Below are positions 1-1,701 of a stretch of DNA of 10,368 nucleotides, piece by piece. This DNA comes from a virus. The DNA is taken from UHGV virus genome UHGV-0067349; one strand, written 5' to 3'. The notes under the pieces are model-generated. The model worked only from the letters and a program-made list of their open reading frames with translations, searched no databases and was not told where the DNA came from. A program made the position numbers and the translations under genes. Position 1 is the stretch's first letter; each line of letters opens with the position of its first letter.

Positions 1-229
1 GGAGGGCTTTGCATTCTGCTTTGGTATACGTTTTACCGAGCATGATGTCTTTTCCGGTGTGTCCGTGACATACAGTCCATACACCAACAATATCTTTGTA
101 TGGTATGTAGCTAACACCTTCCAGACCATCGTTACCACTTGGTCCAGTGATTAACACAGATGCTATAGCAATAGCCCCGCCACTTATCGCCGCTATTACG
201 CTATTTCGTAGTGCCGGTGACATTGCCAT
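1..229 (-). CDS. SAR-type endolysin (lysozyme family), N-terminal part only; gene continues past the window start
   Basis: Minus-strand ORF from ATG at 229-227, with GAGGA 8 nt upstream. Translation: [76 protein letters not shown]. It has a Gly/Ala-rich weakly hydrophobic N-terminal segment (signal-anchor-release type) followed by a lysozyme-like region, and resembles phage 21 R / P1 Lyz type endolysins from memory. Start overlaps the 3' end of the holin gene. Absent from the ORF track because it is cut by the window edge. Confidence 0.75.
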
Positions 230-404
230 TCAATCTGTCCTCGCGCTCTTTGCGCTTGTAGTACCAGTTGATGCCAAATGTGCCGACAGTACAAAGAATA
301 CCAATGATGACAGCCCAGTCATTCAGGGAGAGAATGCCACCCATCGCAGTCAGTCCTCCGAAGCTGTAACTGAACCATTCTCTGATTTTGTCCATACGGT
401 ACAT
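201..404 (-). CDS. Class II (pinholin-like) holin with dual-start motif
   Basis: 67-aa [70 protein letters not shown]. Two predicted TM segments, the first Gly-rich and weakly hydrophobic, and a charged C-terminus. Met1-Tyr-Arg-Met4 is a dual-start arrangement typical of holin/antiholin pairs. It sits directly upstream of, and overlaps, the endolysin gene. A hairpin CCCCTcaatgaAGGGG immediately upstream includes the likely SD. Confidence 0.7.
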
Positions 405-531
405 GCTCTACCCCTTCATTGAGGGGATTTGCTCTATTTAATTAGGAATAAGGTCGATTACTGATAGAACAAATCCAGGCTACTGTGTTTAGTAATCAGA
501 TTTGTTCGTGACCGATATGCACGGGCAAAAC

Positions 532-561
532 GGCAGGAGGTTATTAGCGCGACCTCCTGCC
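532..561 (-). other. Conserved 10-bp-stem hairpin in the late leader (GGCAGGAGGT / ACCTCCTGCC, 10-nt loop)
   Basis: Perfect inverted repeat seen directly. On the minus strand it is followed by GTTTTGCCC, a weak U-tract. The surrounding leader reads as lambda-like from memory. Function unknown. Confidence 0.3.
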
Positions 562-647
562 ACCGCTTTCACGAAGGTCATGTGTAGAAGGCCGCAGCGT
601 AACTATCACTGATGAATTCAGGATAGCCAGTGGCTACGGCTCAGTTA

Positions 648-723
648 TGGTGCTGGTTAACGGACTTGAACCGCTACCCATTCGCTTACAAGGCGACTGC
701 TCTACCATTGGAGCTAAACCAGC
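648..723 (-). tRNA. tRNA-Thr-like, anticodon UGU
   Basis: Manual cloverleaf fold of the minus-strand 76-mer GCTGGTTTAGCTCCAATGGTAGAGCAGTCGCCTTGTAAGCGAATGGGTAGCGGTTCAAGTCCGTTAACCAGCACCA. Perfect 7-bp acceptor stem, 4-bp D stem GCTC/GAGC, anticodon loop CTTGTAA, T loop TTCAAGT, 3' CCA encoded. One G.A mismatch at the top of the anticodon stem. Confidence 0.6.
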
Positions 724-728
724 ATATT

Positions 729-803
729 TGGCGGGACAGCGTGGACTCGAACCACGATAAGAAGGTTAACAGCCTTCCGTAATGACCTTTATACGACTGA
801 CCC
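729..803 (-). tRNA. tRNA-Asn-like, anticodon GUU (irregular D arm; possibly degenerate)
   Basis: Minus-strand 75-mer GGGTCAGTCGTATAAAGGTCATTACGGAAGGCTGTTAACCTTCTTATCGTGGTTCGAGTCCACGCTGTCCCGCCA. Good anticodon arm GAAGG/CTGTTAA/CCTTC, T arm CGTGG/TTCGAGT/CCACG, CCA end. Acceptor stem has one T.T mismatch and the D stem is only 3 bp. Separated from the tRNA-Thr-like gene by 5 nt. Confidence 0.45.
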
Positions 804-807
804 AAAT

Positions 808-863
808 AAAAAATCCCGAAACCGTTATGCAGGCTCTAACTATTACCTGCTAACTGTTTCGGG
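808..863 (-). terminator. tR'-like intrinsic terminator ending the short PR' transcript
   Basis: Minus strand reads ...GCATAACGGTTTCGGGATTTTTTATTT, with stem CCCGAAAC/GTTTCGGG followed by a U-tract. Sequence and position match the lambda tR' terminator as recalled. Confidence 0.7.
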
Positions 864-999
864 ATTGCATTTTGCAGACCTCTCAGCCTGCGATGGTTGG
901 AGTTCCAGACGATACGTCGAAGTGACCAACTAGGCGGAATCGGTAGTAAGCGCCGCCTCTTTTTATCTCACTACCACAACGAGCGAATTAACCCATCGT
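808..999 (-). ncRNA. Lambda-type 6S RNA (short PR' leader transcript from PR' to tR')
   Basis: About 192 nt between the predicted PR' start (minus-strand ACGATGGGTTAATTCGC...) and the tR' U-tract. Near-identical to the lambda PR'-tR' leader as recalled. Not the host SsrS 6S RNA. Confidence 0.6.
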
Positions 1000-1035
1000 T
1001 GGGTCAAATTTACCCAACTTTATTCAAAAAGTCAA
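1000..1035 (-). promoter_or_regulatory. Late promoter PR' with qut (Q utilisation) region
   Basis: Minus strand has -35 TTGACT (plus 1030-1035), a 17-nt spacer and -10 TAAATT (plus 1007-1012), with start near 999. Lies about 45 nt downstream of the Q stop. Lambda-like arrangement. Confidence 0.65.
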
Positions 1036-1077
1036 TATCATGCCGTTAATATGTTGCCATCCGTGGCAATCATGCTG

Positions 1078-1701
1078 CTAACGTGTGACCGCATTCAAAA
1101 TATTGTCTGCGATTGACTCTTCCTTGTGGCATTGCACCACCAGAGCGTCATACAGCGGCTTAACAGTGCGTGACCAGGTGGGTTGGGTAAGGTTTGGGAT
1201 TAGCATCGTTACAGCGCGATATGCGGCGCTTGCTGGCATCCTGGAATAGCCGACGCCTTTGCATCTTCCGCACTCTTTTTCGACAACTCTCCCCCACTGC
1301 TCTGTTTTGGCAATATCAACCGCACGGCCTGTACCGTGGCAATCTCTGCATCTTGCGCCCGGCGTCGCGGCACTACGGCAATAATCCGCATAAGCGAATG
1401 TTGCGAGCACTTGCAGTACCTTTGCCTTAGTATTTCCTTCAAGTTTTGCAACGCCACGGTATTTCCCCGATACCTTGTGTGCAAATTGCATCAGATAGTT
1501 GATAGCCTTTTGTTTGTCGTTCTGGCTGAGTTCATGCTTACCGCAGAATGCAGCCATTCCGAATCCGGCTTGTGATTGCGCCATCCCCATAGCAGCCATC
1601 ACATCAGTACCGGAAAGAGAGTCAGAAGCCGTAGCCCGTGGTGAGTCGCTCATCATCGGGCTTTTTGGCGAATGAAATTTAGCTACGCTTTCGAGTCTCA
1701 T
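1078..1701 (-). CDS. Q: Late-gene antiterminator Q (lambda Q type)
   Basis: 207-aa ORF MRLESVAKFHSPKSPMMSDSPRATASD...CRDCHGTGRAVD...ECGRCKGVGYSRMPASAAYRAVTMLIPNLTQPTWSRTV..., recalled as essentially lambda Q with a Cys-rich zinc motif. SD GGGGAAGG upstream; ATGA overlap with the ninH stop; located just upstream of PR'. Confidence 0.9.
   Translation of the reverse strand: MRLESVAKFHSPKSPMMSDSPRATASDSLSGTDVMAAMGMAQSQAGFGMAAFCGKHELSQNDKQKAINYLMQFAHKVSGKYRGVAKLEGNTKAKVLQVLATFAYADYCRSAATPGARCRDCHGTGRAVDIAKTEQWGRVVEKECGRCKGVGYSRMPASAAYRAVTMLIPNLTQPTWSRTVKPLYDALVVQCHKEESIADNILNAVTR

Follow-up and report, generated by a model that had tools for sequence, protein, structure and literature searches.

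A lambdoid late lysis cassette with a putative dual-start holin of the HP1 family and a phage 21-type SAR endolysin behind a lambda-type leader

The dual translation starts of the holin genes of lambda (S105/S107) and phage 21 (S21 68/71) add positive charge to the longer product (PMC9636201), and in lambda the ratio of the two products is set by sdi (PMC3359269). The Hol protein of Haemophilus phage HP1 shows pinholin behaviour together with a SAR endolysin and does not release beta-galactosidase; it works without a dual start and has an unusual C-out topology when overexpressed (PMC7312051). Here we describe a lysis cassette that begins at positions 1..440, on the minus strand, of a stretch of viral DNA of 10,368 nt (UHGV virus genome UHGV-0067349; the whole of this stretch is referred to as the window). 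These positions hold the start of a lambdoid late lysis operon, with its translation-initiation region and its first two genes. The cassette is an ordinary lambdoid prophage lysis module, in which a two-helix holin with two start codons is combined with a phage-21-type membrane-tethered lysozyme; many Salmonella phages and some E. coli prophages carry it as well, already annotated.

Together with the DNA in front of it, the cassette is a five-piece mosaic, likewise already annotated elsewhere. The first three pieces are lambda Q/pR'/tR', a tRNA module and a lambda-type distal leader, with the following features.

1078..1701, minus strand: late antiterminator Q, lambda type, 207 aa (PF03589 at E 1e-57).
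1007..1035, minus strand: pR' late promoter (TTGACT-17-TAAATT), from a consensus scan, in a segment 98% identical to lambda.
806..866, minus strand: tR' (6S RNA) terminator, stem ATCCCGAAAC / GTTTCGGGAT and then a T-run, from sequence reading and alignment to lambda.
729..803, minus strand: tRNA-Asn (GTT), by ARAGORN and Rfam (RF00005 at 55 bits).
648..723, minus strand: tRNA-Thr (TGT), by ARAGORN and Rfam (RF00005 at 61.5 bits).
422..646, minus strand: distal late leader, lambda type, from segment identities.
527..561, minus strand: leader stem-loop GGCAGGAGG / CCTCCTGCC and then GUUUUG, from sequence reading, terminator-like in appearance.

The 3'-end of Q and the DNA downstream of it are 98–99% identical to lambda and HK446, and in HK446 the site equivalent to pR' is annotated as PR'-like. 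Identity to lambda is 98% over 1077..806, and by analogy with lambda the tR' stem presumably terminates transcription. Homology to lambda stops at 806, where the tRNA module (805..647) interrupts the lambda-type leader; lambda has no tRNA genes at this place, whereas tRNA-Asn is also annotated in phage 21, SPN9CC and mEp506. A search of 1..1200 against Rfam gave nothing beyond the two tRNAs. These two tRNA genes and their absence from lambda are not mentioned in an earlier note on this DNA; they lie outside the region that it considered. After the module, positions 646..586 are 92% identical to lambda and 98% to phage 21, and positions 585..422 are 99% identical to lambda and unrelated to phage 21, while the distal leader is 97–98% identical to both HK446 and SPN9CC. 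The stem-loop at 527..561 is invariant in lambda, HK446 and SPN9CC, and a stem of different sequence occupies the same place in a further relative (L243). Judged by its identity to lambda between Q and S, the leader can be assigned to the lambda type. The earlier note had likewise read it as lambda-like up to just before the holin, which agrees with the identities on either side of the tRNA module.

The remaining two pieces are an HP1-type holin with the first 16 endolysin codons, and an R21-type endolysin body.

411..426, minus strand: sdi-like hairpin with 5' arm CCCCU (426..422), loop CAATGA (421..416) and 3' arm AGGGG (415..411), from the MFE fold.
201..404, minus strand: class II holin (PF16080), an ORF of 67 aa, from Pfam match, hydropathy and AF2.
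404..402, minus strand: AUG of the long form of the holin (putative antiholin), 67 aa, from ORF reading.
395..393, minus strand: AUG of the short form of the holin (putative holin), 64 aa, from ORF reading.
1..229, minus strand: 76 codons from the 5' end of the gene for an R21/RrrD-type SAR endolysin, from translation, PF00959 and PDB matches; it continues past the window edge.
405..421, minus strand: interval of the leader/holin-module junction; homology to lambda reaches as far as base 422, and clear homology to the holin family starts at 409 (AGAGCAUG).
183..184, minus strand: second mosaic joint, in the SAR-coding region of the endolysin, from segment identities.

We suggest that transcripts from pR', antiterminated by Q, would pass tR', the two tRNA genes and the lambda-type leader before they reach the 67-codon holin gene, where translation most likely begins at either of two in-frame AUGs, codons 1 and 4, and yields two proteins. 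The longer one (67 aa), with its extra Met-Tyr-Arg and one more positive charge, would be the antiholin and the shorter one (64 aa) the active holin. The stem-loop 5' of the first AUG (AUG1) would sequester the sole good Shine-Dalgarno (SD) sequence in its 3' arm, and the stability of the stem would decide what share of the ribosomes goes to each start, like sdi in lambda S and phage 21 S, and thereby tune the timing of lysis. The phage-21-type SAR lysozyme would be exported by Sec and remain an inactive, tethered protein as long as the membrane is polarised, so that depolarisation is all that the holin would have to bring about, as a pinholin does. A putative antiholin/holin and SAR-endolysin mechanism like that of phage 21 is well supported by comparison, because the dual Met, the SD hairpin and the endolysin with a hydrophobic N-terminus recur family-wide in the counts given below. 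The reading as a whole, comprising an HP1-family dual-start holin/antiholin, a start choice set by the hairpin, a SAR endolysin, pinholin behaviour and a mosaic origin, is in our judgement probable.

The identity of the holin gene is read directly from its Pfam match. The protein scores 75.1 bits (cut-off 28.8, E 4e-21) with PF16080 (Phage_holin_2_3, the HP1 holin family) over residues 5–53, and PF16080 is present in 45 of 45 database homologues. Against PF04971 (Phage_holin_2_1, the family of phage 21 S) it reaches only 19.5 bits with a cut-off of 26, and a BLASTP comparison with S21 gave no significant pairwise similarity (E 0.27), which together rule out membership of the phage 21 S family. 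No NCBIfam model matches the holin or S21. A profile of the holin family nevertheless aligns with S21 over nearly its full length by hhalign (probability 79%, E 1.5e-5), which indicates that the holin is a remote homologue of S21 outside PF04971. An in-frame TAG two codons 5' of AUG1 makes a form longer than 67 aa impossible. We also note a plus-strand ORF at 147..422 (91 aa, GTG start) antisense to the holin; the sense holin ORF accounts for this stretch.

The sole uncharged stretch of the holin, residues 10–49, is divided at N28-D29, and hydropathy places hydrophobic segments at residues 10–27 and 30–49. AF2 gives helices at 3–24 and 29–58 with low confidence (pLDDT 65.6). The holin has exactly two TM helices, as is typical of class II; neither hydropathy nor AF2 found the three TM segments of a class I holin, and at 67 aa with charged ends the protein has no room for a third. 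The first segment (TMD1, mean KD 1.02, 50% Gly/Ala/Ser/Thr) is less hydrophobic than the second (TMD2, mean KD 1.34), a pattern that is the same in S21. With K6 and R8 at the N-terminus and KRKEREDR at the C-terminus the charges fit the positive-inside rule, and a topology with both ends inside is predicted from this distribution. The 67-aa holin with two TM segments and an M-Y-R-M start that the earlier note had described is thus found as the ORF 404..201 on the minus strand. We find it reasonable to call the holin pinholin-like, since HP1 Hol, the founder of PF16080, is an experimentally supported pinholin (PMC7312051); as HP1 Hol, the one member of the family for which functional data are cited, has no dual start and is reported C-out, the transfer of its properties is indirect.

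The endolysin gene overlaps the 3'-end of the holin gene by 29 nt, and its product matches the phage 21 endolysin in PDB 3HDE (E 1.6e-41) as well as PDB 4ZPU (E 1e-41). From residue 17 to the window edge at residue 76 it is identical to phage 21 R (3HDE). A SAR segment at residues 11–28 has a KD of ~2.3 and 56% Gly/Ala/Ser/Thr, values computed on identical relatives, and is followed by the catalytic triad E37-8-D46-5-T52. By this order, a Gly/Ala-rich segment and then Glu-8aa-Asp-5aa-Thr, the protein is a SAR endolysin of the phage 21 R type (GH24 lysozyme); in a 100% identical E. coli record it is annotated as lysozyme RrrD. The SAR-type N-terminus proposed earlier is therefore borne out, as is the view that the lysis genes are not lambda S/R, the holin having no real similarity to lambda and the endolysin being of R21 type. 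Of the phage 21-type arrangement that the earlier note had seen here, the endolysin half stands and the holin half needs correction as to family, the holin belonging to PF16080 and not to the S21 family PF04971.

The partner gene bears on the size of the lesion. As expected of a pinholin, the holin is paired with a SAR or signal-anchored endolysin, and across the family we observe the same pairing directly: 75 of 76 downstream genes code for endolysins whose N-terminus is hydrophobic and rich in Gly/Ala, none is soluble, and they comprise at least three sequence types. Such a pairing is no proof of pinholin function, because SAR endolysins are also partnered with large-hole holins. According to the introduction of PMC7312051 they occur beside holins that are not strictly pinholins, as in P1 (LydA/Lyz) and N4. 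The protein could hence be a canonical large-hole holin, making lesions like those of lambda S105, with the SAR endolysin as an incidental partner. Hole size is unreadable from sequence, and the greater hydrophobicity of TMD1 relative to that of S21 (KD 1.02 versus 0.21) makes its exit from the membrane less obvious. We consider a large-hole holin unlikely, if a serious alternative, in view of the near-invariable pairing with several types of endolysin, the lack of beta-galactosidase release by HP1 Hol (PMC7312051) and the remote homology to the S21 pinholin. We favor the formation of small holes, which these comparisons would suggest.

Alignment to the lysis regions of lambda and phage 21, a check put forward in the earlier note, places the mosaic joints directly, at 421..405 and at 183..184. 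Identity to lambda falls from 99% in 585..422 to 59% in 421..405, and the alignment ends at base 422, inside the stem, so that the switch does occur at the hairpin as had been claimed. Over 421..184 the DNA matches SPN9CC at 94–100% and shows no relation to phage 21, whereas over 183..1 its identity is 97% with phage 21, 96% with DLP12 and 89% with SPN9CC. The leader/holin joint is the same in every one of ~60 HP1-type cassettes behind this leader. Only two classes of cassette follow this leader, and a scan of viral contigs with the leader pattern returned the same two. The junction is thus a single old event common to dozens of phages, and the link between leader and holin is ancient, since where the leader has diverged, the holin behind it has diverged too. 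The prophage itself could come from ordinary homologous recombination anywhere in the ~400-nt segment of tRNA genes and leader that HK446-like and SPN9CC-like parents have in common. When the latest crossover was sought by SNPs in the common leader, the differences of this prophage from HK446 and from SPN9CC were few and interleaved and gave no clear breakpoint.

The earlier note went further and suggested that the start-selection hairpin is itself the recombination joint. On this proposal the hairpin is a recombination substrate, and a crossover in the short anti-SD/SD arms that unrelated cassettes have in common swaps holin genes and at the same time rebuilds the structure for start selection. 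It would account for the end of lambda homology within the stem-loop, and the hairpin halves of different family members are nearly interchangeable energetically (-10.0 kcal/mol native versus -8.3 after swapping, a cost of only ~1.7). In two relatives (L252 and L253) the same ATCCCCT/AGGGGGT hairpin stands behind an unrelated leader, and S21-type genes (DLP12 essD, Lambda_ev203) have hairpin types in common with PF16080 members; the latter may be explained if the initiation regions of the S21 and HP1 types descend from a common ancestor. We find the proposal doubtful, as the cassettes offer one independent junction only, with two classes and a joint that is always the same, and as diverged leaders travel with diverged holins. 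Phage 21 joins the same leader ~180 nt further upstream, with a hairpin of its own. Because the junction can be placed no finer than within ~12–17 nt (421..410, or the whole of 421..405), it could equally sit after the SD but before AUG1, as a simple gene boundary maintained by selection. What holds is that homology ends within the hairpin; that the hairpin is the joint has partial support only, and we prefer to regard the junction as one old event. More generally, one might speculate that the SD/anti-SD hairpin in front of dual-start holins is a portable linker, the arms of which supply microhomology for illegitimate or short-homology recombination and are near-identical in unrelated cassettes (lambda S, S21-type, HP1-type) owing to functional constraint. 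We give this a low probability; if true, whole holin genes would be exchangeable, and a control element would explain where the breakpoints of holin swaps lie.

The holin N-terminus reads M-Y-R-M, with AUGs at codons 1 and 4, so that the long form differs from the short form by an extra Met-Tyr-Arg and one positive charge (Arg3, between Met1 and Met4), as the earlier note had stated. In the family we observe directly that two Mets stand 2–3 codons apart in ~95 of 100 unique proteins, with Arg or Lys between them in ~89. A scripted count gave M-x(1-2)-M in at least 88 of 100 and K/R between in 82, and the larger totals include seven Symbiopectobacterium proteins (MTRM) beyond these. Both Mets and the Arg/Lys are kept while the spacing varies (MRM or MxRM) and so does residue 2 (Y, Q, H, T, K, A, N). 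Two in-frame starts 2–3 codons apart, with a conserved basic residue between, are the pattern of a candidate dual start, and phage 21 S is alike in its geometry: one SD ~6–7 nt before AUG1, a second AUG 9 nt downstream, and both starts annotated as used.

It could instead be that one AUG is used, that the second Met is merely a conserved residue and that the hairpin only damps translation of a toxic protein. Two products are so far indicated by comparison only, HP1 Hol works without a dual start (PMC7312051), and the AUG at codon 4 has no good SD of its own. Gene callers have sometimes picked Met4 as the start (P0013, P0017, P0023 and P0025), and a few relatives have MSM or MADM, with no charge between the Mets, or a single Met (L275, L182 and L204). 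We think that a single start is quite improbable, as the pair of Mets and the charge between them persist in most variants despite the changes in spacing and neighbouring residue, and as phage 21 S has an identical M-x-x-M-D-K layout with the same SD spacing. Use of both starts, with the long form as antiholin, would thus be our preferred interpretation.

The hairpin directly 5' of AUG1 is in a position equivalent to the lambda sdi stem, and the SD lies within its 3' arm (AGGGG, 415..411), with GGGG 6 nt before AUG1, which confirms the overlap of hairpin and SD described earlier. It is thus a stem-loop of the sdi type. Taken alone, the 5-bp hairpin of the window does not reach significance (z -1.7, with folds as stable in 13 of 200 shuffles); its weight lies in its position and family-wide conservation. 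A hairpin that sequesters the SD is directly observed in 82 of 82 distinct family leaders, folded one by one, with ~50 different stem sequences. The MFE of positions -38..-1 averages -10.5 kcal/mol in the family versus -5.9 in a control set from these loci, 269 starts of other genes with an SD (p 9e-12). We relied on per-sequence folds and control gene starts because stems are out of register between subgroups, and RNAalifold on a MAFFT alignment of the 82 leaders gave no consensus structure. The probability that the SD is paired with bases upstream of it reaches saturation (0.97 native, 0.89 after shuffling of the 5' part, 0.70 in controls) and does not discriminate. The apparent covariation is largely generic pairing of a C-rich anti-SD with a G-rich SD, a reading that follows from the low cost of swapping halves, and we claim no strong compensatory evolution.

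We find it scarcely credible that the two arms form a transcription terminator, or a palindrome that arose by chance and does not act in translation: a consensus scan marks 411..426 as terminator-like on the plus strand and a 5-bp stem is common by chance, yet the stem has no T-run after it on the sense strand, plus-strand terminator matches are at chance level (2 found versus 1.0 expected), and the SD stays in the 3' arm, 6 nt from AUG1, across ~50 different stem sequences. A role of the hairpin in start choice, by analogy with lambda, would thus be the better explanation.

The window itself is of little importance, as it holds a standard module, already found with annotation in numerous records of phages and prophages. 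A modestly useful by-product is that in the enterobacterial HP1-holin branch the dual-start motif persists together with the SD-sequestering hairpin, which offers a third holin family for the study of start-site partitioning and lysis timing. Natural variants in stem length, 5 bp in the window and 7 bp in the SPN9CC type, may tune lysis timing. The junction data add one more case of lambdoid mosaicism with breaks at or beside gene boundaries.

Compared with phage 21 (S21 71/68 and R21), the window has the same endolysin, identical from residue 17 as far as the window extends and 97% identical in DNA. The two holins are alike in size class, in having two TMDs, in an M-x-x-M-D-K-I dual start that adds one positive charge, in a stem-loop that sequesters the SD and in a charged C-terminus containing REDR; the late leaders of both phages also carry the same tRNA module, tRNA-Asn with tRNA-Thr. 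They differ in that S21 belongs to another Pfam family (PF04971), with similarity only at the level of profiles (79%), has a turn of ~8 residues between its TMDs where the window holin has 2, and has a less hydrophobic TMD1. Phage 21 furthermore has its own short leader and hairpin sequence, and its genes overlap by 1 nt (base 1716, which the stop codon of S shares with the start codon of R) in place of 29 nt. The likeness to lambda S105/S107 is in the leader, which matches at 99% as far as the hairpin's 5' arm, in the place of the hairpin with the SD in its 3' arm (PMC3359269) and in two starts with a basic residue between (PMC9636201). Lambda S, in contrast, is a class I holin of 107 aa that has three TMDs and is unrelated in sequence to the window holin, lambda R is a soluble transglycosylase and not a SAR lysozyme, and the lambda leader has no tRNA genes. 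Hol and Lys of HP1 are alike in PF16080 and in a small holin gene upstream of and overlapping a SAR endolysin gene, and differ in that Hol has 78 aa, no dual start and no known antiholin, and is C-out when overexpressed (PMC7312051). Unlike HP1 Hol, the enterobacterial PF16080 branch has dual start and hairpin, and the S21 family has an initiation region of the same type as this branch.

Essentially the same lysis cassette is found in the P22-like Salmonella phages SPN9CC, BTP1, S107, SEN22 and vB_SosS_Oslo, with 98–100% identity in DNA from the tRNA genes through the holin; their records have an annotated class II holin and endolysin. Holin, endolysin and Rz/Rz1 of SPN9CC reportedly cooperate in lysis. 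The SPN9CC group differs from the window in having a P22-type Q upstream and an endolysin body that is only 89% identical, whereas the window combines a lambda Q with an R21/RrrD-like body.

From Q through the endolysin, every listed feature of the lysis region lies on the minus strand:

1701..1078, minus: Q gene, lambda-type (PF03589, E 1e-57)
1035..1007, minus: pR'-like promoter, from a consensus scan
about 866..806, minus: tR' stem and T-run, read from the sequence
803..729, minus: tRNA-Asn (GTT)
723..648, minus: tRNA-Thr (TGT)
646..422, minus: leader of 225 nt
426..411, minus: small hairpin
404..201, minus: holin ORF of 67 codons
from 229 past the window start, minus: first 76 codons of the endolysin gene, overlapping the holin ORF by 29 nt

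The remaining window is an ordinary lambdoid early region (cI-like repressor, cII, O, DnaB-type helicase, NinB, NinX, YbcO and RusA). Bases 1-1110 are 100% identical to a prophage of E. coli strain 755, where the labels read 'antitermination protein', tRNA-Asn, tRNA-Thr, 'phage holin family protein' and 'lysozyme RrrD'. In the distal leader (527-561, minus) a 9-bp GC-rich stem, GGCAGGAGG / CCUCCUGCC, is followed by GUUUUG; it is invariant among lambda, HK446 and SPN9CC, and the diverged leader of locus L243 has another stem sequence at the equivalent position with complementarity kept. This stem may act in weak termination or in RNA processing. A plus-strand ORF (147-422, 91 aa, GTG start) runs antisense to the holin gene, and we take it as a by-product, since the sense-strand holin ORF accounts for the same stretch.

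The holin begins M-Y-R-M, with start codons at 404..402 (AUG1) and 395..393 (AUG4), and an in-frame stop two codons 5' of AUG1 makes a longer form impossible. Its only uncharged stretch, residues 10-49, is interrupted at N28-D29: the first segment (10-27) has a mean Kyte-Doolittle value of 1.02, with Gly/Ala/Ser/Thr making up 50% of it, and the second (30-49) a mean of 1.34. A low-confidence AlphaFold model places helices at 3-24 and 29-58. The protein is too short for a third membrane span, and the 67-aa holin with two transmembrane segments described in the earlier note stands. The protein clearly belongs to the HP1 holin family (PF16080, 75 bits). Membership of the family of S21, the phage 21 holin, was ruled out (PF04971, 19.5 bits against a threshold of 26; BLASTP against S21, E 0.27). 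A PF16080-family profile aligned to S21 with hhalign over nearly the full length (probability 79%, E 1.5e-5), with M-x-x-M-D-K-I, W-A-x-I opening TMD2 and the REDR tail in common; judged by such profiles, the window holin family is remotely related to S21. The founder of PF16080, Hol of Haemophilus phage HP1, behaves as a pinholin: it is lethal and needed for phage release, causes neither lysis nor beta-galactosidase release, has a SAR endolysin as partner, and its gene is without a dual start (PMC7312051).

The partner gene in the window was taken to encode a phage 21-type SAR endolysin, and the fragment indeed matches the crystal-structure sequences of phage 21 R (3HDE) and RrrD (4ZPU) at E 1e-41, with identity complete from residue 17 up to the window edge and the Glu-8-Asp-5-Thr triad present. 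It starts M-A-M (ATG 229 and ATG 223, minus), with GAGGA 8 nt ahead of the first. A regulated dual start is probably absent here, because the third-position Met varies among relatives (MAISP, MGLSP).

The hairpin ahead of the holin, with 5' arm CCCCU, loop CAAUGA and 3' arm AGGGG, belongs to the minimum-energy structure of the region, and its 3' arm, 6 nt ahead of AUG1, is the sole good Shine-Dalgarno sequence (SD), which bears out the overlap of hairpin and SD proposed earlier. Taken in isolation, the 5-bp stem is not significant (z -1.7; 13 of 200 shuffles fold equally well). In the same fold the start codons lie within CAUG and UAUG (392-406, minus), which can pair as a small second hairpin; in MQRM and some MYRM relatives this pairing grows to a 5-bp stem of the GCAUG...CAUGC type. 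The pairing might tie the accessibility of one start to that of the other, or be incidental.

Relatives were sampled at 160 loci, drawn from one-genome-per-species contigs and viral contigs. The 100 unique proteins range in identity to the window holin down to about 40%. Two Met codons with one or two codons between them occur in at least 88 of these, 82 of which have Arg or Lys between; with seven Symbiopectobacterium MTRM proteins added, the counts become about 95 and about 89 of 100. The variants (MYRM, MQRM, MHRM, MTRM, MTKM, MKRM, MRM, MKM and others) retain both Mets and the basic residue, as expected if selection acts on a pair of starts and a single added charge. Per-leader folds gave an SD-holding stem-loop directly 5' of AUG1 in all 82 distinct leaders, with about 50 stem sequences (for example CCCCU/AGGGG, CACCCGC/GCGAGGUG, CCAUCCGA/UCGGAGGUG and ACACUCU/GGGAGUG), and the folding energy was -10.5 kcal/mol against -5.9 at 269 other SD-bearing gene starts of the same loci (p 9e-12). 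When 5' and 3' hairpin halves are swapped among relatives, the cost is only about 1.7 kcal/mol, so much of the pairing is generic anti-SD/SD and not lineage-specific covariation. Of 76 genes that follow the holin, 75 code for endolysins whose N-terminus is hydrophobic and rich in Gly/Ala; these endolysins fall into at least three sequence types.

A long holin subfamily of 84-92 aa (L134, L137, L149, L154, L155, L162, L164, L167, L169-L171, L183-L197 and others; hosts Kluyvera, Klebsiella, Citrobacter, Phytobacter and Symbiopectobacterium) carries an insert of about 22 aa (e.g. SAKAYADTTKEVSWMLADKIAG) separating TMD1 from TMD2, and retains M-T-R/K-M and the SD hairpin. In viral contig L240 (about 1440-1510) the holin body is 100% identical to that of the window and the sequence 5' of Met4 is exchanged, which removes AUG1, Arg3 and the hairpin; in L257 the holin is cut within TMD2 and joined to an unrelated reading frame. 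Both resemble natural knock-outs or rearrangements that hit the same place. Comparison of the S21-family genes in L124 (2853-2916, DLP12 essD) and L299 (780-925, Lambda_ev203) with L250 and L169 showed that S21-family genes and PF16080 members have in common the hairpins CACCCGC/GCGAGGUG and CACCAUCCG/CGGAGGUG and the start AUG-N6-AUG-GAY-AAR; between the two families the initiation region is conserved more than the membrane-spanning body.

In the annotation of phage 21 S both products carry experimental support, and the start geometry of this gene equals that of the window holin. In the accepted model the extra positive charge keeps the topology of the long form inhibitory until membrane depolarisation (PMC9636201), and in lambda the ratio of the two products is set by the sdi structure (PMC3359269). 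Taking the dual start, the hairpin, the partner gene and the phage 21 precedent together, we favor, with fair confidence, a phage 21-like antiholin/holin and SAR-endolysin mechanism as the best explanation, by sequence and analogy. Both starts would then be used, the hairpin would govern the choice between them, and the holes would be of pinholin-like size.

Window segments against reference phages (% identity, pairwise alignments)
1077..806, Q end to tR': lambda 98, HK446 99, SPN9CC unrelated
805..647, tRNA module: lambda unrelated, HK446 100, SPN9CC 99, phage 21 99
646..586: lambda 92, HK446 98, SPN9CC 97, phage 21 98
585..422: lambda 99, HK446 98, SPN9CC 98, phage 21 and DLP12 unrelated
421..405: lambda 59, SPN9CC 94
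404..184, holin and first 16 endolysin codons: SPN9CC 99-100; lambda, HK446, phage 21 and DLP12 unrelated
183..1, endolysin body: SPN9CC 89, phage 21 97, DLP12 96; lambda and HK446 no counterpart

From these identities the cassette is a five-piece mosaic. The two-tRNA module (159 nt), right after tR' in the late leader, is 99-100% identical across phage 21, HK446 and SPN9CC; lambda has at its position a segment of like length and unrelated sequence. Another joint, 183/184 (minus), falls inside the SAR-coding region of the endolysin, with SPN9CC-like DNA unrelated to phage 21 upstream and an endolysin body nearest phage 21/DLP12 rrrD downstream. At the leader/holin joint, alignment to lambda agrees with the earlier note that the lambda-like leader breaks off at the hairpin: the last lambda-homologous base is 422, the closing base of the 5' arm, and recognisable holin-family homology (AGAGCAUG) runs from 409 onward, so the joint lies in the loop, the 3' arm or the SD, at a resolution of about 12 nt.

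That note also took the start-selection hairpin itself to be the recombination joint. Lambda homology does end within the hairpin, and hairpin halves are interchangeable among family members; in L252 and L253 the same CCCCU/AGGGGG hairpin stands behind a leader unrelated to this one, and S21-type genes have hairpin types in common with PF16080 members, but these last two are equally explained by common ancestry of the initiation regions. Viral-contig scans with two leader patterns found only the lambda S type or the window type after the leader, and a break invariably at the same place means a single ancestral junction. In L242-L244 a diverged leader (about 65-75% identical by eye, not computed) precedes a diverged holin (91-93% protein identity), so the leader-holin association is old. 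Phage 21 parts from the common leader at a point about 180 nt upstream of this joint, and its hairpin is its own. The match to the window extends from Q to the hairpin in HK446-like phages and from tR' onward in SPN9CC-like ones, so the prophage is explicable by homologous recombination anywhere in a shared segment of roughly 400 nt. Because of the single old junction, the upstream joint of phage 21 and the possible recombination within the shared segment, we regard the hairpin as the joint itself as a possibility and not a finding, and consider it unlikely that the hairpin serves as a recombination linker.

Of 5426 complete E. coli genomes, 84 carry the holin with its hairpin and 17 the exact combination with lambda Q. 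To the dual-start reading our comparison makes a modest addition, namely the family-wide conservation of dual start and hairpin among enterobacterial holins of the HP1 family, of which we found no published description in the literature searched. Holins with a dual start and an sdi-type stem-loop are long known from lambda and phage 21. In Salmonella P22-like phages (SPN9CC, BTP1, S107, SEN22 and others) the tRNA genes through the holin are 98-100% identical to the window, and the records of these phages already read 'class II holin' and 'endolysin'.
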